Shown one piece after another: positions 2,946 through 62,560 of a DNA stretch of 64,000 nucleotides; positions within the stretch are counted from its first letter, which is position 1, and each line of letters starts with the position of its first letter. The stretch is taken from assembly GCF_000027125.1 (NCBI RefSeq), contig NC_017626.1; one strand, written 5' to 3'. Origin of the DNA: Escherichia coli 042 (GTDB taxonomy: Bacteria; Pseudomonadota; Gammaproteobacteria; Enterobacterales; Enterobacteriaceae). Position numbers and translations under genes: made by a program. Below the pieces are notes generated by a model, which saw only the letters and a list, made by a program, of their open reading frames with translations, was not told the origin of the DNA and searched no databases.

Positions 2946-4012
2946 TCTTTCTTCAGCCGTACCCAGGCCCGCGTGCCGGAAGTCTCTTGCCGGTTTTGCA
3001 GGAAAAACTGCCCGTGATGCAACTGTGTAATGCGGCTGACAATACTTAACCCCAGACCAATCCCGCCATAACGGCTGTCCATACGTACAAACGCTTTACT
3101 CAACTCCCCGCATTTACTCTCATCAATACCCGGTCCTTCATCTTCAACGGCCATGACCGCTCCGCCATCTTCTTGCAGCTTAATCATAATGTTGCTGCCT
3201 TGCGGGCTGTAACGATGGGCGTTTTCTACCAGGTTTCGCAATAACATCCGCAGCAGGGTTGCATCACCTTGAACGGTGATGTCGGCGGCGCTCTCTGGCA
3301 ATAGCAGGGTTTGCTGTCGCTGGTCGAGCATGGTACTGAGTTCGTCATACGAGGGGAGAATGACATCTTCCAGCAGTTTTACATGTTGATAATTACCGGA
3401 AGAAAATGACTGTCCGGCACGCGCCAGTTGCAGCAGCTGGGAGACACTCTCCATCATCTGATCAAGCCGTGCCACTAACGGTGCTACATCAATGTGATGC
3501 GTTTTCGCCAGCAGTTCCAGATGCAAACGCACCCCCGCCAGTGGCGTTCGCAGTTCGTGCGCGACGTCAGCGGTAAACAACCTTTCGTTATCCAGCGTGC
3601 TGGTCAGGCGACTGACCAGATCGTTCAACGCCGAAACCACCGCTTCGATTTCGAGGGTGGCGCTGTGAATGGCAATAGGCGTTAAGTTGTCGGCGGTGCG
3701 CGCTTCCAGCTCTTTTTGCAGCTCCGCCAGCGGCCGGGTGATGCGGCGTACCGCCTGATAGCAGATAAATAGCGTCAGGCTGACCATAAAGACGCCGGGG
3801 ACGATCAGGCTGGCGACCGCCTCGCGGATCTCACGCATGATGTGGCGATCGTTGTTGCGATTGTCGCGTAGCGCCTGCTCAAACAGCTGAATCTGCTCGG
3901 TACTTTCATGCCATAGCCAGAAGACGCTGATCAGCTCAAACACCAACAAAATGGCCCCAATGGTCAATATCAGCCGTTGGCGCAGCGATATTGGTCGGCG
4001 CAGAAAACGCAT
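2921..4012 (-). CDS. basS: BasS/PmrB sensor histidine kinase
   Basis: ORF 2921-4021. The ATG at 4012 gives the 363-aa protein M(R)FLRRPISLRQRLILTIG..., with H-box ADVAHELRTPL and ATPase G-boxes. It sits immediately downstream of basR. Confidence 0.95.
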   Translation of the reverse strand: MRFLRRPISLRQRLILTIGAILLVFELISVFWLWHESTEQIQLFEQALRDNRNNDRHIMREIREAVASLIVPGVFMVSLTLFICYQAVRRITRPLAELQKELEARTADNLTPIAIHSATLEIEAVVSALNDLVSRLTSTLDNERLFTADVAHELRTPLAGVRLHLELLAKTHHIDVAPLVARLDQMMESVSQLLQLARAGQSFSSGNYQHVKLLEDVILPSYDELSTMLDQRQQTLLLPESAADITVQGDATLLRMLLRNLVENAHRYSPQGSNIMIKLQEDGGAVMAVEDEGPGIDESKCGELSKAFVRMDSRYGGIGLGLSIVSRITQLHHGQFFLQNRQETSGTRAWVRLKKDQYVANQI

Positions 4013-9004: not shown

Positions 9005-11275
9005 TTACGCTTTCACACACATAACGTGGTAAATACCGTCAATAATTTCTGTCCCTTCTGTTTCGTGTTCAAATCCAGGGAAATGATGGTCCCAGGATTG
9101 CAGCGAGCGTAAATAACTTACTTGCGGACTGTTTTTATCGCCGAAGTTTTCACCAGACAGCAGCATCGGGATTCCTGGCGGATACGGGATAACTGAGTTT
9201 GCCGCGATGCGTCCTGGCAGATTTTCAATGGATACCAGTTCGACATTGTTGTCGACAATCGCGTTGTACGCTTCACGCGGGGTGATTTCCGCCACCGGCA
9301 GGCCGGAATAGGCTTCGTTCAACCGTGCGCCAGGGTTGTTTTCTTTCAGCCAGGCAAACATGGTGTCACCCAGATCGTGAATCCCCATGTTCGCGTAAGT
9401 GTCAGGATATTGTTCAACAAGTTCCGGCATCACCTGCGCCAGCGGTGTGTTGGCGTCATAGTGGCGTTTGAAGGAGCAAAGGGTGTTAACCAGAGTCCCC
9501 CATTTCCCACGGGTTATGCCCATAGAGAACAGGAACATGATTTGGAAGTCAGTGGTGCGGGTAGGCACAATGCCGTGGCGACCAAGCCAGGCAGTGACCA
9601 GCGCCGCCGGAACACCGGTTTCTTCCAGTTCACCATCTTCACCCATTCCCGGAGCAAGGATGCTGACTTTAATCGGGTCGAGCATACTCCAGTTATCCGG
9701 AATATCTTTGAAGCCGTGCCAGCTTTCGCCCGGATGCATGACCCAGCAGTCCTGAACGGTGGTCAGCAGTTTGGTTGGTGCGTCAGCAAAGTCATAGGTT
9801 TTGCCGGTTTGTGGGTCGGTGACGACTTCTTTGTTCCACGGTTTGAAGAACCAGCTACCGTCAGCGGTGAACTCTTTATACAGCCGCGCCATCGCCTGAC
9901 GGAAATCAACCGCTTCGTCGATCACTTCCTGGGTCAGTGACAGGCCGCTGTTGCCGTCCATCATCGACACTGCCACGTCGTTGGATGCACAGATGGCATA
10001 CAGCGGGGAGGTGGTGGCATGCATCATGTAGGCCTGGTTGAAGCGGGAGAAGTTAATCGCCCCACGACCTTCACGTACATGAATATAAGAGGCCTGTGAC
10101 AGTGCATTCAGTAGTTTGTGGGTGGAGTGGGTGGCGAAAACGGTAGGACCGTTGTGATCGCCAGGTTCGCCGCGCATGGCATAGTGATCGGCATAGATCG
10201 GGTTGAAACGTGCATAGCCGTACCAGGCTTCGTCAAAGTGCAGACGATCGGAGGTTTTTTCCAGCAGATCCTGCGCTTCTTTAGCGTTATAACACACGCC
10301 GTCATAGGTACAGTTGGTCACTACGCAGTAAGACGGTTTTTGCCCGGCTTTGTCTTTAGTCAGCGGGCTTTCACTGATTTTCTTCTGCAAGGTTTCAGGT
10401 TGCATTTCCTGCGGATAGATTGGCCCGATAATGCCGTAGCGGTTGCGGCTTGGCACCATGTAGACCGGTTTCGCGCCCGTCAGCATCAAGCCTTGTTCGA
10501 TGGATTTATGGCAGTTACGGTCAACGACCACGACATCGTTATCGGTCATGCAAGCCTGCATGATGGTGCGGTTAGAGCCGGAAGTACCGACGACTACCGA
10601 CCAGGAGCGATCGGCACCAAATACGCGTGCGGCATATTTTTCGCTTTCGCCAAATGCGCCAGTATGGTCAAGCAAAGAACCGAGGGAAGTTCGTTCGATG
10701 CCCATGTCGGTGCGGAACAGATTTTCACCATAGAAGTCATGGTAGAAACGTCCGGCGGGTGTTTTGGTAAAACCAACGCCACCCTGGTGGCCTGGCGCTG
10801 CCCAGGAATATTCATGGATGTCGCTATATTTCATCAGCGCGCTGAACAGTGGCGGCAACAGTTGCTGGCGGTAGCGGGTCATCGCGGCAACGGCGCGTCC
10901 GGCGATAAAGTCGGCGGTATCTTCCAGAATCCAGGCGAATTCATCGACAAGCTCCAGCAGATCCCGGTCCATTGCGGCGAGGGCTTTTTCCCGATCGCCC
11001 AACAGGAAGACCGGCACGTTTTGTTGGCGCTCATGAAGCTTACCGATCAATTGTCTGACGTTTTGATGTTCGTCCGGATGTTCCATTTGATAGCTGAACA
11101 TCAGGCAGTCAATGGCTTCGTTTGAAGAGAGAATGGCAAAACCATCATCAAAGGAGGTGGATTTAATCACGGTAACATTTTGCTGGCTTAAAGCATCTGC
11201 CAGACGCTCAACGGCGTTACCGACCCAGGTGTCTTGATGGAGAAACTCGCTTTCAACAATTAATACTTTCATCAT
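9005..11275 (-). CDS. adiA: AdiA biodegradative (acid-inducible) arginine decarboxylase
   Basis: 756-aa ORF, M(M)KVLIVESEFLHQDTWVGNAVERLADAL...; PLP fold-I Orn/Lys/Arg decarboxylase. The alternative second-codon ATG at 11272 gives the 755-aa K-12 form. Confidence 0.97.
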   Translation of the reverse strand: MMKVLIVESEFLHQDTWVGNAVERLADALSQQNVTVIKSTSFDDGFAILSSNEAIDCLMFSYQMEHPDEHQNVRQLIGKLHERQQNVPVFLLGDREKALAAMDRDLLELVDEFAWILEDTADFIAGRAVAAMTRYRQQLLPPLFSALMKYSDIHEYSWAAPGHQGGVGFTKTPAGRFYHDFYGENLFRTDMGIERTSLGSLLDHTGAFGESEKYAARVFGADRSWSVVVGTSGSNRTIMQACMTDNDVVVVDRNCHKSIEQGLMLTGAKPVYMVPSRNRYGIIGPIYPQEMQPETLQKKISESPLTKDKAGQKPSYCVVTNCTYDGVCYNAKEAQDLLEKTSDRLHFDEAWYGYARFNPIYADHYAMRGEPGDHNGPTVFATHSTHKLLNALSQASYIHVREGRGAINFSRFNQAYMMHATTSPLYAICASNDVAVSMMDGNSGLSLTQEVIDEAVDFRQAMARLYKEFTADGSWFFKPWNKEVVTDPQTGKTYDFADAPTKLLTTVQDCWVMHPGESWHGFKDIPDNWSMLDPIKVSILAPGMGEDGELEETGVPAALVTAWLGRHGIVPTRTTDFQIMFLFSMGITRGKWGTLVNTLCSFKRHYDANTPLAQVMPELVEQYPDTYANMGIHDLGDTMFAWLKENNPGARLNEAYSGLPVAEITPREAYNAIVDNNVELVSIENLPGRIAANSVIPYPPGIPMLLSGENFGDKNSPQVSYLRSLQSWDHHFPGFEHETEGTEIIDGIYHVMCVKA

Positions 11276-25578: not shown

Positions 25579-27726
25579 TTATTTTTTGCTTTCTTCTTTC
25601 AATACCTTAACGGTATAGCGGCCATCAGCCTGACGGTATGCACCGTGAATATCGGTTTCAAAGCCCGGATAGTGAGCGCCGATTTCACACAGCATCTGCA
25701 GGAACTCCAGAACCGGACGGCTTTCTTCGGTGATCATTTCACCCGGCATTACCAGAGGAACTCCCGGCGGATACGGAAGGATCATATTGGCGTTAATACG
25801 ACCGACCATTTCGTCGAGGTAAACTTCTTCGGTCATACCGTGCAGCTCTTTCTGGAACGCAGCATACGGAGTCATTACCATTGTCGGCAGCACTTCAAAT
25901 GCGCGATACATCAGATCCGGCAGATTGTGGTGAACAATCAGTTTGTGGATATTCTGAGCCAGTTCCTGAATACGCATGTTTTCATAGAATTCAGGATCTT
26001 CACGATACAGAGACGGCAGCATGTTTTTCACACGCAGGTTCAGATCGAACGCACGTTTGAAGTCAGTCAGAGCACGCAGCAGGCTCAGTGCTTTGGTCTT
26101 ATCGATACCGATGCTGAACAGGAACAGCAGGTTATACGGACCGGTTTTCTCAACAACGATGCCATGTTCGTCGAGGTATTTCGCCACGATGCTGGCCGGA
26201 ATACCGAAGTCGCTCATGGTGCCGTCTTTTTCCATCCCCGGAGTCAGCAGGGTGACTTTGATCGGGTCAAGATACATGTGCTCGTTATCGATGTTTTTGA
26301 AGCCGTGCCAGGTGCTGTCAGAACGCAGCGGCCAGCATTCAGTCGTATCGATATGATCCGGCTGCCATACATCAAAGAACCAGCCATCAGATTCCGTTCT
26401 CAGGCGTTTGATCTCTTTACGGAATTTGATCGCACGTTCAATGGAACCGTTGATCAGACGCTTACCAGCATTACCTTTCATCATCGCCGCAGCGGTTTCA
26501 GTGGACGCCACGATACCGTAGTGCGGAGAAGTGGTGGTGTGCATCATGTAGGCTTCGTTAAAGGTTTCTTCGTTTACGTCACCTTTAACGTGGATCATGG
26601 AAGCCTGAGAGAATGCCGCCAGCAGTTTGTGAGTGGACTGGGTTTCGTAAATCACTTTCCCTTCTACACGGCCACCGCTCATACCGCATTTACCTTCGTA
26701 AATCGGTGAGAAGTTGGTGTAAGGCACCCACGCGGAGTCAAAGTGGATGGATTTGACATCCAGTGTTTTCTTGATGAAGTCGGTGTTGTACAGCAGACCA
26801 TCATAGGTAGAGTTAGTAATTACAGCATGTACCGGCCAGGTTGCGTTTGGTGTTTCTTTCACGCGCTTAGCAATGGTAGCGTGCTGGAATTCACTCTGTG
26901 GGATACCACCAAGAATACCGTAAGCGTTACGGGTCGGGCGGAAATAGATTGGCGTAACATCGCTCATCATCATCAGGTGGGTCAGCGATTTGTGGCAGTT
27001 ACGGTCAATCAGAATGGTGCTGCCTGCCGGAGCTGAGTACATACCAACAATTTTGTTCGCAGTGGAAGTACCGTTGGTCACCATGTAGCTGCGGTCTGCG
27101 TTAAAGACGCGAGCAATATACTGTTCTGCTTCTTTGTGTGGACCACTGTGATCCAGCAGAGAACCCAGTTCAGATACTGAAATGGAAATATCAGATTTCA
27201 TGGTGTTCGGACCAAAGAAATCATAGAACAGGCTACCTACCGGGCTTTTCTGGAATGCAGTACCGCCCATGTGACCAGGAGTACAGAAAGTATATTTACC
27301 TTCACGAACATATTTAAACAATGCTTTGGTCAGCGGAGGCAGAATAGTGTTGATATATTCGTCAGTGGTCTGCTTGATCTTGTTAGCAATATCTTCAGCA
27401 GCACCCAGCGCATATTCAAAGAAGCTAATCTGTAAACGCAGGTCATTCAGGCTTACATCGAGAGTGGAATACGTATTAGCGAACGCGTACAACGGCAGGT
27501 TCTCGTTCATTTTGCTAATTTCTTCGCACAGCTCGAGATTATATTTATCCCAGTCAAAAATAACGCCGCACAGACGCGCATTGTTTTCGATCAGTTTTAA
27601 TAAGTCGTCACGGTCGTTCGGGTAAACAATCTGGAAGTTCAGACGTTCAAGCGCGCGATGAAGTTCACGGATGGGTTCTTCTTTAAAATAAACCCCCATG
27701 TGATTCAATATTGCAATAACGTTCAT
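25579..27726 (-). CDS. cadA: CadA inducible lysine decarboxylase
   Basis: ORF 25579-27765. The K-12 N-terminus MNVIAILNHMGVYFKEEPIRELHRALERL... corresponds to the ATG at 27726 (715 aa). Confidence 0.97.
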   Translation of the reverse strand: MNVIAILNHMGVYFKEEPIRELHRALERLNFQIVYPNDRDDLLKLIENNARLCGVIFDWDKYNLELCEEISKMNENLPLYAFANTYSTLDVSLNDLRLQISFFEYALGAAEDIANKIKQTTDEYINTILPPLTKALFKYVREGKYTFCTPGHMGGTAFQKSPVGSLFYDFFGPNTMKSDISISVSELGSLLDHSGPHKEAEQYIARVFNADRSYMVTNGTSTANKIVGMYSAPAGSTILIDRNCHKSLTHLMMMSDVTPIYFRPTRNAYGILGGIPQSEFQHATIAKRVKETPNATWPVHAVITNSTYDGLLYNTDFIKKTLDVKSIHFDSAWVPYTNFSPIYEGKCGMSGGRVEGKVIYETQSTHKLLAAFSQASMIHVKGDVNEETFNEAYMMHTTTSPHYGIVASTETAAAMMKGNAGKRLINGSIERAIKFRKEIKRLRTESDGWFFDVWQPDHIDTTECWPLRSDSTWHGFKNIDNEHMYLDPIKVTLLTPGMEKDGTMSDFGIPASIVAKYLDEHGIVVEKTGPYNLLFLFSIGIDKTKALSLLRALTDFKRAFDLNLRVKNMLPSLYREDPEFYENMRIQELAQNIHKLIVHHNLPDLMYRAFEVLPTMVMTPYAAFQKELHGMTEEVYLDEMVGRINANMILPYPPGVPLVMPGEMITEESRPVLEFLQMLCEIGAHYPGFETDIHGAYRQADGRYTVKVLKEESKK

Positions 27727-42900: not shown

Positions 42901-43112
42901 TGGTTTACCAGTGTTCCGCCATTCACTGTTTCACCCGGGTGCACAACGATGTCAGCAGCCAGCACCGGGAGTGACGTGACTGCGGCAAGAGACAGTGCAA
43001 CCGCCACACCGCCACGTTTACCCCGTGCGCGGGCCAGTTCGGAGGCAACCACGAAAGCGCCCGTAATGTGATTCCATACCAGCCTGTAGCAGGTATTCAG
43101 ATGTCGTTTCAT
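39993..43112 (-). CDS. flu: Antigen 43 self-associating autotransporter adhesin
   Basis: ORF 39993-43118. Extended autotransporter signal peptide MKRHLNTCYRLVWNHITGAFVVASELARARGKRGG..., a repetitive G/T/N-rich beta-helix passenger, and a C-terminal beta-barrel ending ...QATLNVTF. Confidence 0.95.
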   Translation of the reverse strand: MKRHLNTCYRLVWNHITGAFVVASELARARGKRGGVAVALSLAAVTSLPVLAADIVVHPGETVNGGTLVNHDNQFVSGTADGVTVSTGLELGPDSDDNTGGQQIARGGTARNTTVTANGLQDVMAGGSATDTVISAGGGQNLRGQAYGTVLNGGEQWIHAGGSASGTVINQSGYQTIKHGGQATGTIVNTGAEGGPESENVSSGQMVGGTAESTTINKNGRQVIWSSGMARDTLIYAGGDQTVHGEAHNTRLEGGNQYVHKYGLALNTVINEGGWQVIKEGGTTAHTTINQKGKLQVNAGGKASDVTQNTGGALVTSTAATVTGTNRLGAFSVLAGKADNVVLENGGRLDVLSGHTATNTRVDDGGTLDVRNGGAATTVSMGNGGVLLADSGAAVSGTRSDGTAFRIGGGQADALMLEKGSSFTLNAGDTATDTTVNGGLFTARGGSLAGTTTLNNGATLTLSGKTVNNDTLTIREGDALLQGGALTGNGRVEKSGSGTLTVSNTTLTQKTVNLNEGTLTLNDSTVTTDVIAQRGTALKLTGSTVLNGAIDPTNVTLTSGATWNIPDNATVQSVVDDLSHAGQIHFTSTRTGKFVPATLQVKNLNGQNGTISLRVRPDMAQNNADRLVIDGGRATGKTILNLVNAGNSGTGLATTGKGIQVVEAINGATTEEGAFVQGNMLQAGAFNYTLNRDSDESWYLRSEERYRAEVPLYASMLTQAMDYDRILAGSRSHQTGVNGENNSVRLSIQGGHLGHDNNGGIARGATPESSGSYGFVRLEGDLLRTEVAGMSLTTGVYGAAGHSSVDVKDDDGSRAGTVRDDAGSLGGYMNLTHTSSGLWADIVAQGTRHSMKASSGNNDFRARGWGWLGSLETGLPFSITDNLMLEPRLQYTWQGLSLDDGKDNAGYVKFGHGSAQHVRAGFRLGSHNDMTFGEGTSSRAPLRDSAKHSVRELPVNWWVQPSVIRTFSSRGDMRVGTSTAGSGMTFSPSQNGTSLDLQAGLEARVRENITLGVQAGYAHSVSGSSAEGYNSQATLNVTF

Positions 43113-43299: not shown

Positions 43300-43345
43300 A
43301 TGACGATCGATATAAACGATCGATAAAATAGGTATCGATCGTTTT
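43300..43345 (-). promoter_or_regulatory. agn43 (flu) phase-variation region: three GATC sites / OxyR operator
   Basis: GATC at 43305-43308, 43318-43321 and 43337-43340, within tgacGATCgatataaacGATCgataaaataggtatcGATCgtttta. Three closely spaced Dam sites overlapping the OxyR site are the known agn43 switch. Confidence 0.75.
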
Positions 43346-46941: not shown

Positions 46942-47514
46942 TCAACAGGCGTATAACAGGTACTCGTCAATCATCAGTTCAAGCTCGCGCTTTTCCCGTT
47001 TGCGCGCCACAGCCCAGCTTTCAAGTTCTGCGTGTGATTTATGCTTTAACTCTTCAGTCCAGGGCTGCATGGAGTGGGCGCACATCAGATCATACCAGCA
47101 CAGCCATATCAGGGTGTGGTAGAGATCGCGATCGTCAAAACGCCGGAGCAGACTGTTCAGCCTGTTTGCCAGTCGGCTTTCTCCCAGACGATGTAGTTCA
47201 CTGAGTAAAACACCACCCAGGTTAAAATGTGTAAGTAACATGATTTCATGAGTCTGAATGCTGGTCATTAACCCTTCCTGAATGGCAGGAATGAACGGTG
47301 GCGTTGCCGGGTTGACTACCTGATAGAGTCCCTGTGGTGCCACCGAGATGATGGTGCCTTTTTCCGGCAGAAAAAAGTGGGCCAGGGTCAGGCGATGATA
47401 ACCATGAAGATGCGGAGAGCCCATTCCGTGAGCGACAATAAACCGGGTTACACTTGCCATCCATTTCTGATGCTGGGTGAGCAGCAGATCACACCGGTTT
47501 TCAAGTTTTTGCAT
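46942..47514 (-). CDS. Hypothetical 190-aa protein co-oriented with alpA
   Basis: ORF 46942-47541. The ATG at 47514 is preceded by the SD AAAGGAGAG and lies 85 nt downstream of the alpA stop. MQKLENRCDLLLTQHQKWMASVTRFIVAHGMGSPHLHGYHRL.... No family recognised. Confidence 0.6.
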   Translation of the reverse strand: MQKLENRCDLLLTQHQKWMASVTRFIVAHGMGSPHLHGYHRLTLAHFFLPEKGTIISVAPQGLYQVVNPATPPFIPAIQEGLMTSIQTHEIMLLTHFNLGGVLLSELHRLGESRLANRLNSLLRRFDDRDLYHTLIWLCWYDLMCAHSMQPWTEELKHKSHAELESWAVARKREKRELELMIDEYLLYAC

Positions 47515-52176: not shown

Positions 52177-52368
52177 TTATTCTGTTTCTTCCCGGGGTTC
52201 GGGTTTGAATTTTCCCAGGAAGTTGTACATCGGTCGCATGCAGGGATGCGGATAGCCGTCCCGCATAAACACCACCCGGGTTTCCTCAACACTGGTCACG
52301 GTGACAAGCGCACCATGATCGTCTCTGTATCGCTGATTGATTTTCGGTAATGGAATATCTTCTGACAT
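52177..52368 (-). CDS. Small protein, DUF4222-like
   Basis: 63 aa, MSEDIPLPKINQRYRDDHGALVTVTSVEETRVVFMRDGYPHPCMRPMYNFLGKFK.... Family name recalled with moderate certainty. Confidence 0.5.
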   Translation of the reverse strand: MSEDIPLPKINQRYRDDHGALVTVTSVEETRVVFMRDGYPHPCMRPMYNFLGKFKPEPREETE

Positions 52369-52417
52369 AGATTTCAGAACGGTAACAGTTAACTAAATTT
52401 TCATGTGGTAGCACTGA

Positions 52418-52450
52418 ATCAGGAGTCTCTGCCTCCTGATGTGTTTTGTT
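52418..52450 (+). terminator. Hairpin + T-rich tail upstream of the T6SS promoter
   Basis: atcaggag-tctctgc-ctcctgat (8-bp stem) followed by gtgttttgtt. Confidence 0.35.
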
Positions 52451-52745
52451 AATCTTCTGTTTTTACTAGAAATCCCCTCACTCCTTCTTTCATTGCATTT
52501 TGTTGGGCCCTTCCTCCATATCTTTCCCGCTTTCCAGAAATCACGTCAATGCTGCTGAAACTTTACTCATTGTGATTTTCAATGACTGAAATCAAGAAAA
52601 TACAGTGTTTATGTTAACTGGCTGTATCAAAAGTGTTTTGTGGAATAATTTTCTGTATTTTTACATTAACAATGGTTATAAGCTTTGAATATTCATTATT
52701 TTGCGACATTCCATAGAATAAAGTCCTGATTATTTGCATTATATC

Positions 52746-52798
52746 GATCGATGTATCTGTTATATTGAGATTTTTCAGATCTTCGTCCTATAATGATC
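52746..52798 (+). promoter_or_regulatory. T6SS (tssB) sigma70 promoter with three GATC sites
   Basis: -35 TTGAGA (52765-52770), an 18-bp spacer, and a perfect -10 TATAAT (52789-52794). GATC at 52746-52749, 52778-52781 (in the spacer) and 52795-52798 (abutting the -10). AT-rich Fur-box-like stretches include tataatgatcaaaattaaa. The ATG of tssB lies about 75 nt downstream. Confidence 0.6.
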
Positions 52799-52874
52799 AA
52801 AATTAAATCAGTGCACAAGGGGAGGCATCTGCGGTGATGGAACCCCTGAGATGCAGGTTTCACAGGAGAGAGCC

Positions 52875-53372
52875 ATGAGCAGTTCGTTTCAGAATGAAAT
52901 CCCGAAAGCAAGGGTAAATCTGAAATTAGACCTACATACGGGTGGTGGGCAGAAGAAAGTGGAGCTTCCGCTCAAACTTCTGGTTGCCGGTGATTTCAGT
53001 AACGGACAGGAAGAGCGTCCACTGTCAGAGCGTGTAAAAACGGATATTAATAAAAACAATTTTAATGATGTTCTGGCAGATATCTCCCCGTCTGTACATC
53101 TGAATGTGGAGAACACGCTTGCCGGTGATGGCTCTGAAGAGAGCATCAGCCTGACTTTCCGCAATATGAACGATTTCACGCCAGAGCAGGTCGCCCGACA
53201 GATTCCCCGTCTTAAAGCCATGCTGGCCATGCGTAGCCTTCTGCGGGACCTGAAAGCCAATCTGCTGGATAACGTGACTTTCCGTAAAGAGCTGGAAAAA
53301 ATTCTGCGTGACCCGGCACTGAGTCAGACGCTGCGTGATGAACTGCGTGCACTGGTGCCGGAAAAGGCGTGA
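52875..53372 (+). CDS. tssB: TssB (VipA/ImpB) small sheath subunit
   Basis: ORF 52851-53372. The ATG at 52875 has the SD AGGAGAG. MSSSFQNEIPKARVNLKLDLHTGGGQKKVELPLKLLVAGDFS... is the canonical TssB N-terminus. Confidence 0.95.
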   Translation: MSSSFQNEIPKARVNLKLDLHTGGGQKKVELPLKLLVAGDFSNGQEERPLSERVKTDINKNNFNDVLADISPSVHLNVENTLAGDGSEESISLTFRNMNDFTPEQVARQIPRLKAMLAMRSLLRDLKANLLDNVTFRKELEKILRDPALSQTLRDELRALVPEKA

Positions 53373-59330: not shown

Positions 59331-61997
59331 GTGAATAACATGGAAAATTCGGCAGCCCTGTTACGTCGTCTTAATCATTACTGTGCCCGTGCACTGGAAG
59401 GCGCAGCCTCCCTTTGCCAGACCCGGGCCCATGCGGAAATCACCCCGGAGCACTGGTTACTGAAACTGCTGGAGCAGGGGGAAGGAGACCTTACCGTGCT
59501 GGGCAGGCGTTATGACTGGGATATGGACGCGATATGGCAGTCGCTGCTCGGCTGGCTGGATAACCAGCCCCGTAGCGTACGCAGTCGCCCGCAGCTTGCG
59601 CAGTCCCTGAATGCTCTGCTGAAACAGGCCTGGATGGTGGCCTCATTACAGGGAGAAGAACATATCCGCAGCGTGCATCTGCTGGGTGCCCTGACGGAAA
59701 ATCCGCACCTGGTTCGCTGTGACGGGCTGTGGCCTCTGCTGACACTGAGTCAGAGCCAGTTGCAGCGTCTGTCCCCGCTGCTGGATGCGCAGTCTGATGA
59801 GTGTCCGGAGACGTTACAGGATGCAGAGCCTGTGCTGCCTCAGGGAGACAGTGTGACCTTTATCGGGCGCCCTGTCGGTGCGGATACGGCAGGTATACCG
59901 TCAGGTGACCTGCCGCCGGTGTTACAGGGTGCGCTGGATAAATTCACCCGGGACATCACGGCCAGCGCGAGAGAGGGGAAAATTGACCCGGTATCGGGAC
60001 GCGATACGGAAATCCGTCAGATGGTGGATATTCTCTCCCGCCGTCGCAAGAATAACCCGATTCTGGTGGGGGACCCCGGTGTGGGGAAAACGGCTCTGGT
60101 GGAAGGGCTCGCCCTGCGTATTGTGGAAGGTAACGTACCAGAATCTCTCAGACCCGTCACCCTGCGCACCCTTGACCTCGGCCTGCTGCAGGCCGGTGCC
60201 GGCGTGAAAGGTGAATTTGAACAGCGTCTGAAAAACGTGATTGATGCCGTGCAGCTGTCACCGGCTCCTGTACTGCTGTTTATAGATGAAGCCCATACCC
60301 TTATCGGTGCCGGTAATCAGGCCGGTGGCGCGGATGCGGCCAACCTGCTGAAGCCTGCGCTGGCGCGAGGCGAACTGCGCACCATTGCTGCCACCACCTG
60401 GTCTGAGTACAAACAATACCTGGAACGTGACGCGGCTCTGGAGCGGCGTTTTCAGATGGTCAAAGTGGACGAGCCGGATGATGAGACGGCCTGTCTGATG
60501 CTGCGCTCCCTGAAATCCCGTTATGCGGAACATCATAACGTGCATATCACCGATGAGGCAGTACGTGCTGCCGTCACACTCTCGCGCCGTTATCTGACAG
60601 AACGTCAGTTACCGGACAAGGCCGTTGACCTGCTTGATACTGCTGCTGCCCGTGTGCGGATGAGCCTCGACACGGTGCCGGAACAGCTGACCCGAATCCG
60701 TTCACAGCTCGCTTCCCTCGGTATGGAAAAACAGGCACTGCTGGAAGATATTGCCGTTGGTCATCAGAATCACGGCGAACGCCTGTCTGCCATTGAGCAG
60801 GAAGAGAACGTGCTGATGACAGCACGTGATGACCTGGAGCAGCAGTACGCCCGTGAGTGCGAACTCACCGGTGAGTTACTTGAAAGCCGCAGCGATATTT
60901 CCCGCCAGAGTGAGACACATCACCTGCAGCAGGCACTGCACGACATTCAGCAGAATCAGCCCCTGCTCAGTGTGGATGTTGACGTACGCACCGTTGCCGG
61001 TGTGGTCGCGGACTGGACCGGAGTGCCGTTATCCTCACTGATGAAGGATGAACAGACGGAACTGCTGCATCTGGAAAAGGATATCGGCAGACGGGTGGTC
61101 GGACAGGACGTGGCACTGGAATCCATTGCACAGCGTCTGCGTGCGGCGAAAACGGGTCTGACATCCGGTAACGGCCCCCAGGAGGTGTTCCTGCTGGTCG
61201 GCCCCAGTGGTGTGGGAAAAACCGAAACGGCACTGGCGCTGGCAGATGTGATGTACGGCGGCGAAAAATCACTGATTACCATCAATCTGTCGGAATATCA
61301 GGAGCCCCATACGGTTTCCCAGCTTAAGGGTTCACCGCCCGGGTACGTGGGATACGGTCAGGGGGGTATTCTGACGGAAGCTGTACGTAAGCGCCCTTAC
61401 AGCGTGGTGCTGCTGGATGAAGTGGAAAAGGCCCACCGGGATGTGCTGAATCTGTTCTACCAGGTGTTTGACCGGGGCTTTATGCGCGACGGTGAGGGGC
61501 GTGAAATTGACTTCCGTAATACGGTCATTCTGATGACCTCCAATCTGGGCAGTGACCTTCTGATGCAGCAACTGAGCGAAAAGCCGGAGACAACGGAATC
61601 GGAGCTGCATGAGCTTATCCGTCCACTGCTGCGCGACCACTTCCAGCCAGCACTGCTTGCCCGTTTCCAGACCGTGATTTACCGTCCGCTGACACCGTCT
61701 GCTATGCGCACCATTGTGGAGATGAAGCTTGCACAGGTCTGCGAACGCCTGCACTGCCATTATGGGCTGAGCACATCGGTTGATGAACGTGTGTACGATG
61801 CCCTGACATCCGCCTGCCTGCTGCCGGATACGGGCGCCCGGAATGTGGAGAGTCTGCTGAACCAGCAACTGCTGCCGGTACTGAGCCGGCAGTTGCTGAG
61901 CCATATGGCCGCGAAGCAGAAACCGCAGGCGCTGGCTCTGGCATGGAGTGACGAAGACGGTATGGTGATTGAGCTGCGGCAGGAATGCGCGTTATGA
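59331..61997 (+). CDS. clpV: ClpV (TssH) AAA+ sheath-recycling ATPase
   Basis: 888 aa from the GTG at 59331 (in-frame ATG at 59340). Two AAA+ modules with Walker A motifs GDPGVGKT and GPSGVGKT, plus a Clp-N-like N-domain. Confidence 0.95.
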
Positions 61998-62560
61998 CCG
62001 GCTATGGCAGAAATCAGGACGCTGGCGCAGGTAAAAATCAAAGGGAAGAAGGCTCATTGCGGTTACTGACGCCGGGAGAGATTGCGCTGGCGAGGCTGGT
62101 ATTCAGGTTGACAATCCCTTATGAAAAGGTCTGGATCCACCATGACAGTTTTCTGCCTTTTGGTCTTCAGAATAAGCAAACTGCCATGCCCCCCGATGGT
62201 AAGATTTATTTCCGTGAGCACTATCGGGATGATTATTCACTCAGCGTTCCCTTTTATCAGCATATGTTTATTCATGAAATGGCGCATGTCTGGCAGCGTG
62301 AAAAGGGAATGAATGTCATCGGTCGGGGGATGTTCAGTTGGGCGGTGAATTACCGTTATGTTCTGGACGGGCGTCTGTTAAGCGAATATCCCATGGAGCA
62401 GCAGGCACAAATTATTGCTGATCATTTTACTTTGCAGGCTGAAGGATACGGGACATGGTGTGATATGAGAAGGGACGGTGATATCACACTGGACGGAAAT
62501 ATGTCTGAGTATGTTATTCGCAGCCTGTATACCAGCACGTTGCGGGGGTTCCCATGGTAA
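61994..62560 (+). CDS. Uncharacterised HExxH (zinc-metallopeptidase-motif) protein, T6SS-linked
   Basis: The ATG at 61994 overlaps the clpV stop (ATGA); an alternative ATG is at 61985. 188 aa with no signal peptide. Single HExxH motif in ...FYQHMFIHEMAHVWQREKG.... Confidence 0.75.
   Translation: MTGYGRNQDAGAGKNQREEGSLRLLTPGEIALARLVFRLTIPYEKVWIHHDSFLPFGLQNKQTAMPPDGKIYFREHYRDDYSLSVPFYQHMFIHEMAHVWQREKGMNVIGRGMFSWAVNYRYVLDGRLLSEYPMEQQAQIIADHFTLQAEGYGTWCDMRRDGDITLDGNMSEYVIRSLYTSTLRGFPW

Follow-up and report, generated by a model that had tools for sequence, protein, structure and literature searches.

The 64,000-nt stretch of the Escherichia coli 042 chromosome analysed here (contig NC_017626.1; hereafter the window) carries a type VI secretion system (T6SS) gene cluster, and our subject is the promoter of its first gene, tssB (sciH), with the GATC sites and Fur boxes that surround it. 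The open reading frames (ORFs) downstream of this promoter encode TssB, TssC and TssK (Pfam E = 4e-52, 4e-123 and 4e-124, respectively). In E. coli 55989, whose locus is 99.8% identical, the RefSeq annotation reads tssB-tssC-tssK-tssL-OmpA family-hcp-tssH...vgrG-tle1 ('Tle1-EAEC'), and this gene order is that of the sci1, or T6SS-1, cluster. ORFs, Pfam matches and the 55989 annotation together place the promoter directly upstream of tssB, at the head of a cluster that ends in vgrG-tle1. On the other side, a DUF4222 gene lies on the opposite strand (52177-52368), so that 52369-52874 is a divergent intergenic region; it is 506 nt long and has a G+C content of 36%.

Direct reading and a script give the same core promoter, a TTGAGA hexamer and a TATAAT hexamer separated by an 18-nt spacer, TTTTTCAGATCTTCGTCC. 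A promoter consensus scan ranks this pair as the top promoter-like site of the region, with 11 of 12 consensus matches. Three GATC sites, which span 53 nt end to end, are interleaved with these elements, at offsets of -43 (GATC-III, or G3), -11 (GATC-II, or G2) and +6 (GATC-I, or G1) from the first base of the -10, and each sits within a 6-nt palindrome. Two of them lie in or close to a Fur box: G1 lies within the proximal box (fur1, or F1), where tataatgatcaaaattaaa is located at 52789-52807, and G3 is two bases from the distal box (fur2, or F2). The first-pass annotation of this DNA had called the promoter near-consensus and had placed one GATC upstream of the -35, one in the spacer and one abutting the -10, and all of its coordinates are correct to the base. 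The positions are collected in Table 1.

Table 1. Features of the sci1 promoter region, in window coordinates.
Feature	Position	Strand	Evidence or remark
Published 596-bp sci1 promoter fragment, -578 to +18 of sciH/tssB (EC042_4524)	52298..52892	+	Primer matches and coordinates
GATC-dis, distal GATC of the published map (position 22 of 596)	52317..52320	.	429 nt to GATC-III in both paper and window
Distal Fur box fur2/F2, CCTGATTATTTGCATTATA	52725..52743	+	11/19 in the published register, 12/19 on the other strand; 'Bfur1' oligonucleotide insert 52722-52746 (box plus 3-nt flanks)
GATC-III / G3	52746..52749	.	In CGATCG (PvuI) and ATCGAT (BspDI)
-35 hexamer TTGAGA (predicted)	52765..52770	+	Sequence; 'putative', BProm prediction in Brunet et al. 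2011
GATC-II / G2	52778..52781	.	Spacer; in AGATCT (BglII), overlapped by Hpy188I TCAGA
-10 hexamer TATAAT (predicted)	52789..52794	+	Sequence and consensus scan
Proximal Fur box fur1/F1, TATAATGATCAAAATTAAA	52789..52807	+	13/19 of consensus; overlaps the -10 and G1; 'Bfur2' oligonucleotide insert 52786-52811
GATC-I / G1	52795..52798	.	In TGATCA (BclI), between the -10 and the expected start site
5' untranslated leader (inferred from promoter geometry)	52801..52874	+	Start about 7 nt past the -10; Shine-Dalgarno AGGAGA 52864-52869
tssB (sciH), first gene of the sci1 T6SS cluster	52875..53372	+	Pfam T6SS_VipA, E = 4e-52; ATG at 52875

This stretch is almost certainly Psci1, the main sigma-70 promoter of the sci1 (T6SS-1) cluster of enteroaggregative E. 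coli (EAEC), because the oligonucleotides, the restriction map and the 042 coordinates all fit those of Brunet et al. (2011, PLoS Genet 7:e1002205; PMC3145626). All six oligonucleotides from Table S1 of that paper that anneal here match the window at 100%. They comprise two cloning primers, two pT7 primers (in their window-annealing parts) and the inserts that carry fur1 and fur2. The pT7 and pGE593 cloning primers anneal at 52298-52320 and 52309-52333 on the plus strand and at 52865/52866-52892 on the minus strand; the inserts match at the positions given in Table 1. The published Figure S1 maps, on 596 bp, GATC-dis at 22, Hpy188I at 64 and 77, GATC-III at 451, GATC-II at 483 and GATC-I at 500 (PMC3145626). 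These sites correspond to window positions 52317, 52361, 52374, 52746, 52778 and 52795, an exact fit in which the Hpy188I labels are site starts counted from 52298 and the GATC labels are site centres, two bases after the first base. The spacings between successive GATC sites (429, 32 and 17 nt) are identical in the paper and in the window. The cloned fragment is given as -578 to +18 of sciH (EC042_4524), nucleotides 4852298-4852892 of EAEC 042 (PMC3145626), and these published coordinates equal the window coordinates plus 4,800,000; the window thus very probably corresponds to 4,800,001-4,864,000 of EAEC 042.

The published description of the elements fits as well. In it the three GATC sites cover 53 nt, the -35 has one on either side, and the third follows the putative -10 and lies within fur1; it also describes fur1 as a 13/19 match that overlaps the -10 and GATC-I, and fur2 as an 11/19 match upstream of the -35 (PMC3145626). 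The window agrees with every part of this description, and both match counts were reproduced. Thus, the suggestion of the first-pass annotation that the layout is consistent with the Fur/Dam switch of EAEC sci-1 can be put more directly, in that oligonucleotides, restriction map and published description identify it as that promoter. Across everything that can be compared with the published Psci1 (Brunet et al., 2011, and a follow-up, PLoS Biol 2026, PMC13262931), including primer sites, both Fur-box oligonucleotides, restriction sites, GATC spacing, position upstream of sciH/tssB and 042 coordinates, we detected no difference; the experiments themselves were in strain 17-2. In the 55989 homologue one base differs of 596, and T52764C is the sole mismatch in the promoter alignment.

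Two discrepancies with the 2011 paper are minor. The oligonucleotide names are reversed relative to the text, 'Bfur1' being the distal box and 'Bfur2' the proximal box, and counts of 13/19 and 11/19, together with the positions given in the text, decide which box is fur1 and which fur2. The SspI fragments are stated as 384 and 212 bp, and as 396 bp elsewhere (PMC3145626), whereas the sole SspI site of the fragment, at 52688-52693, gives about 393 and 202 bp. Because all other mapped sites fit exactly, we treat this mismatch as a counting slip.

The switch is not new: reports published in 2011, 2020 and 2026 have described it, down to point mutants of each element. Experiments of the kind that the first-pass annotation had proposed, on dam and fur mutants, on the effect of iron and on the methylation of the GATC sites, are among those in the literature, as are iron chelation and point mutants of each site (PMC3145626, PMC13262931). 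In fur insertion mutants a sci1-lacZ fusion goes up about 25-fold, and the iron chelator dipyridyl induces it (PMC3145626). Fur titration assays (FURTA) and gel shifts showed that Fur binds the promoter and each box, and Fur pre-binding cuts RNA polymerase binding (PMC3145626). In vitro, Fur shields GATC-I from Dam, but not GATC-II or GATC-III; in vivo, protection of GATC-I on a reporter plasmid is lost in a fur mutant or with dipyridyl, and a methylated GATC-I lowers the affinity of Fur for fur1 (PMC3145626). In strain 17-2, iron limitation produces reversible, heritable ON/OFF subpopulations (PMC13262931). Chromosomal point mutants separate the roles of the elements: the F2 mutant is ON even in rich medium, the G3 and triple-GATC mutants are homogeneously OFF, and the G1 and G2 mutants are still heterogeneous, with shifted ON/OFF ratios (PMC13262931). 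Fur binding, methylation protection, competition with RNA polymerase and mutant phenotypes are thus the contribution of the literature, and sequence identity, element positions and conservation of the core are that of the present analysis.

Placed on the window, the published model gives the following cycle. When iron is replete, iron-loaded Fur (Fe-Fur) would occupy F1, overlapping the -10, and F2, and the bound Fur would both exclude RNA polymerase and shield GATC-I from Dam, so that the promoter is OFF. When iron becomes scarce, Fur would leave, transcription would start and Dam would methylate GATC-I; this methylation would lower the affinity of Fur for F1 and so stabilise the ON state. 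A return to OFF would need iron together with replication, which provides hemimethylated DNA. Under iron limitation the population would split into heritable and reversible ON and OFF subpopulations, with F2 and GATC-III as the main determinants of bistability. We infer that methylation on the chromosome behaves as it does on the reporter plasmid.

Conservation within E. coli provides support of a different kind. The promoter is present in 202 of 5,426 complete E. coli genomes, in 43 at an identity to the window of at least 99% and in 130 at 80-90%. Nine representative loci were aligned to the window, one from 55989 and one from each of eight divergent lineages, and segment identities were calculated over the eight. 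The F1/-10/G1 block is 97% identical to the window, as is the tssB coding sequence, followed by the -35 (90%), the G3 block (88%) and the spacer (83%); F2 reaches 71% and flanking intergenic DNA 66-76%. Counting the window, the alignment holds 10 sequences. All of them have G3, the TTGA of the -35 and TATAAT; the F1 box is identical in nine, and G1 is present in nine, having been lost in STEC17-190. G2 is kept in eight, and both sequences without it have a new GATC next to G3. Six of the eight divergent lineages (L002-L006 and L009, 75-90% identical) have a fourth GATC; it sits on the 5' edge of the F2 position, aligned to window 52720-52728, where AAAGATCTG, a BglII palindrome, replaces AAAGTCCTG. 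From these segment identities and site counts, the alignment indicates that the proximal F1/-10/G1 module is under strong constraint, conserved like coding sequence, and that F2, to which the literature assigns the key role in bistability, seems confined to the 042/55989 lineage.

Several points weigh against reading this locus simply as the published switch. Only at the primer, box and restriction sites has the window been shown to be identical to strain 17-2. The -10, the -35 and the start site were computer predictions in the 2011 paper (PMC3145626), and we found no mapped start site in the literature examined; the exact transcription start of sci1 we infer from promoter geometry. The 2011 methylation assays were made on a low-copy plasmid, not on the chromosome (PMC3145626). 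The published methylation evidence for these GATC sites consists only of plasmid-borne restriction assays (PMC3145626), and two methylome papers that mention sci1 merely cite it. The equivalent of F2 is poorly conserved, scoring 8-10/19 in other E. coli lineages. Two further points, the weakness of the Fur boxes and the behaviour of G3, each lead to an alternative explanation.

We scored Fur sites as matches to the 19-bp consensus GATAATGATAATCATTATC and estimated chance from dinucleotide-preserving shuffles. Scoring against Fur had been proposed in the first-pass annotation, and run in this way as consensus counts it gives F1 as the best match, at 13/19, with the remaining box at 11-12/19. 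These are weak boxes: 17 window positions score at least 13, and 25% of shuffles of this AT-rich region contain a match as good as 13/19. At least three GATC sites in the 506-nt region are likewise to be expected, occurring in 47% of shuffles, and the window contains six triples of three GATC sites within 60 nt against 1.9 +/- 1.5 expected for randomly placed sites. Judged on sequence alone, then, the Fur match and the GATC count both fall short of significance, and the impression of Fur-box-like tracts could not have been established in that way.

Such numbers are what one would expect if the GATC cluster and the Fur-like AT tracts had no regulatory role and had arisen by chance in an AT-rich intergenic region. 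We give this explanation next to no probability, since it has already been refuted by the published mutant and binding data, in which binding, protection and point-mutant phenotypes were obtained for exactly this sequence. The sequence statistics themselves do not all favour it either. Only 3% of shuffles place all three GATC sites within 53 nt, the core equals coding sequence in conservation while the flanks diverge, and the only non-coding triples of the window are those of Psci1 and agn43, the other four lying inside long ORFs (3803-3850, 10156-10199, 26410-26455 and 47088-47133). The support for the Fur/Dam reading comes from the published experiments and from conservation.

The first-pass annotation had pointed to Fur-box-like tracts at two places. 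The tract on the -10 is the published F1. The other, gaatattcattatt at 52687-52700, is not among the published boxes, and we rejected it, although its score in the window is 12/19; the validated distal box is F2. The gaatattcattatt site is bisected by the SspI site at 52688-52693, and in the 2011 experiments the 3' SspI fragment bound Fur and the 5' fragment did not (PMC3145626). Nor is this site conserved, as it scores 7-8/19 in the six other E. coli lineages that align here without gaps.

Elsewhere in the region, the leader RNA (52801-52874) gave no Rfam match above noise, and its predicted fold does not stand out in stability from those of shuffled sequences (z = -0.53). A terminator-like hairpin, ATCAGGAGTCTCTGCCTCCTGAT then GTGTTTTGTT, lies on the plus strand at 52418-52450, between the DUF4222 gene and tssB and about 350 nt upstream of the sci1 -35; 0.2 are expected in shuffles. 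The hairpin may have arisen by chance, or it may insulate Psci1 from read-through. No tRNA that might anchor an island was found within the 64-kb window.

The second alternative starts from G3. In the 2011 assays Fur did not protect G2 or G3, yet the G3 mutant was locked OFF in the 2026 study, so that the role of G3 is not fully explained by competition with Fur. A possible explanation, which would add to the published model and not replace it, is that Dam acts partly through something other than Fur. Methylation would then affect RNA polymerase or another regulator directly, G2 and G3 would have been inherited from an older GATC-rich tssB promoter of the Enterobacterales, and F1 and G1 would be an Escherichia-specific addition. 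We hold this explanation only tentatively and consider it the less probable account.

The evidence that bears on it comes from tssB promoters in other genera. A collection of TssB relatives, with one genome per species, gave 80 loci, and the 78 loci from outside Escherichia were analysed (72-83% protein identity). In these, GATC is concentrated between -115 and -72 from the tssB ATG, with 71 sites or 20.7 per kb, compared to 1.95 per kb elsewhere in the 300-nt upstream region and 4.0 per kb in the loci overall. The positions are also fixed relative to the promoter. Among 39 loci with a CTATTAT-type -10, GATC recurs at offsets from that -10 of -35 (22 loci), -22 (19 loci), -11 (11 loci) and -42 (8 loci); the one at -22 falls inside the -35 hexamer, TTGATC, and the one at -11 in the spacer. 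G2 of the window shares the -11 offset, and G3, at -43, roughly matches -42. Genera and species that keep GATC sites at fixed offsets include Enterobacter, Citrobacter, Kluyvera, Salmonella enterica subsp. arizonae, Pantoea, Cedecea and others. In most loci no comparable Fur match accompanies this pattern: of the 77 loci for which all 300 nt upstream are available, 67 have a best Fur match of 11-12/19, compared to 13/19 in the window, and in the 10 loci that reach 13-14/19 the match is never on the -10.

These observations would fit a GATC-rich core promoter that is older and wider than the E. coli Fur/Dam switch, with Dam-dependent and possibly heterogeneous T6SS expression being general to the lineage and Fur only its Escherichia-specific input; as for the explanation of G3 above, we regard this as possible but doubtful. 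If it were true, it would explain why G3 matters though Fur does not protect it. Important caveats apply. The loci are homologous, so that shared GATC sites may partly reflect common descent instead of selection, and the sites could be present only because a regulator site, or the -35 variant TTGATC, happens to contain them. In addition, G3 is two bases from F2, and Fur bound to F2 could still sense its methylation. Our literature search found no experiment in these other species and no paper reporting the cross-genus GATC pattern. The 2011 paper calls the Fur/Dam interplay 'not widely distributed', from a comparison with only Edwardsiella and Francisella (PMC3145626). Because G2 and G3 are not protected by Fur and the G3 mutant is nonetheless locked OFF, a Fur-independent contribution of Dam, derived from an older promoter, is a reasonable but unproven addition to the model.

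A strongly conserved palindrome, GGAAAATTCTTAAGAATTTTC, was also seen in these loci (L013, L016, L026, L033, L047, L053, L063, L066 and others), upstream of the GATC cluster and about 60-80 nt upstream of the -10. It is presumably the operator of some regulator, and it may loosely resemble an RcsAB box. The window has a degenerate trace of it, GTGGAATAATTTTCTG, at about 52640.

Taken together, these observations identify the locus with a switch that couples iron sensing to epigenetic memory and thereby generates ON and OFF subpopulations of a bacterial weapon. The identification itself adds no new knowledge about the switch, and its value is that of a positive control, in which a sequence-only reading recovered a validated regulatory architecture. 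Two modest additions can be made. First, within E. coli the F1/-10/G1 module is conserved like coding sequence, and F2 appears lineage-specific. Second, tssB promoters of other genera also have GATC sites at fixed positions, in most cases with no Fur-box match comparable to that of the window, and therefore the generality of Dam control in this T6SS lineage is directly testable. This cross-genus pattern of GATC positions, which lies outside the original finding, is the sole potentially new thread.

Psci1 can be compared with three related systems, of which one lies within the window and a second probably does. The first-pass annotation had counted two separate triple-GATC switches about 9.5 kb apart, Psci1 and agn43. 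The agn43 part stands: the agn43 regulatory region has GATC sites at 43305, 43321 and 43337, three within 36 nt (...CGATCGATAC...TATCGATCGTTTATATCGATCG...), upstream of the minus-strand Ag43 ORF (start near 43112) and 9.4 kb from Psci1, and 43305-43340 is the classical OxyR/Dam phase-variation operator. As in Psci1, the repressor competes with Dam for GATC sites overlapping its operator, which gives heritable ON and OFF states that are reset at replication. In agn43, however, the repressor is OxyR and not Fur, all three GATC sites lie in a single OxyR site within 36 nt, and switching is stochastic, not gated by an environmental signal such as iron (PMC3145626 and general knowledge).

As a count of switches, two is too few, since the literature adds a third Fur/Dam site, P4532. 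P4532 is reported to be an internal Fur/Dam-controlled promoter of the sci1 cluster (Brunet, Bernard and Cascales, 2020, J Bacteriol 202:e00075-20, as cited elsewhere). We propose that its Fur/Dam site is probably ATTATTGCTGATCATTTTA at 62411-62429, which matches the Fur consensus at 12/19 and has its GATC in TGATCA, as at G1. This candidate is internal to the ORF 61973-62557; the next gene, which in the 55989 annotation is a lipoprotein gene, follows about 130 nt further on. It shares with Psci1 the combination of a Fur-like box and a TGATCA-type GATC, but differs in having a single GATC, in lying inside a coding region and in showing no strong -35/-10 match.

The third system is pap, in which Lrp and PapI are set against Dam. 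Here too, methylation of promoter GATC sites dictates regulator binding and gives rise to heritable expression states. In contrast to Psci1, pap uses two GATC sites about 100 bp apart, in separate sets of Lrp sites, needs PapI as a co-regulator, and has no metal-sensing input.

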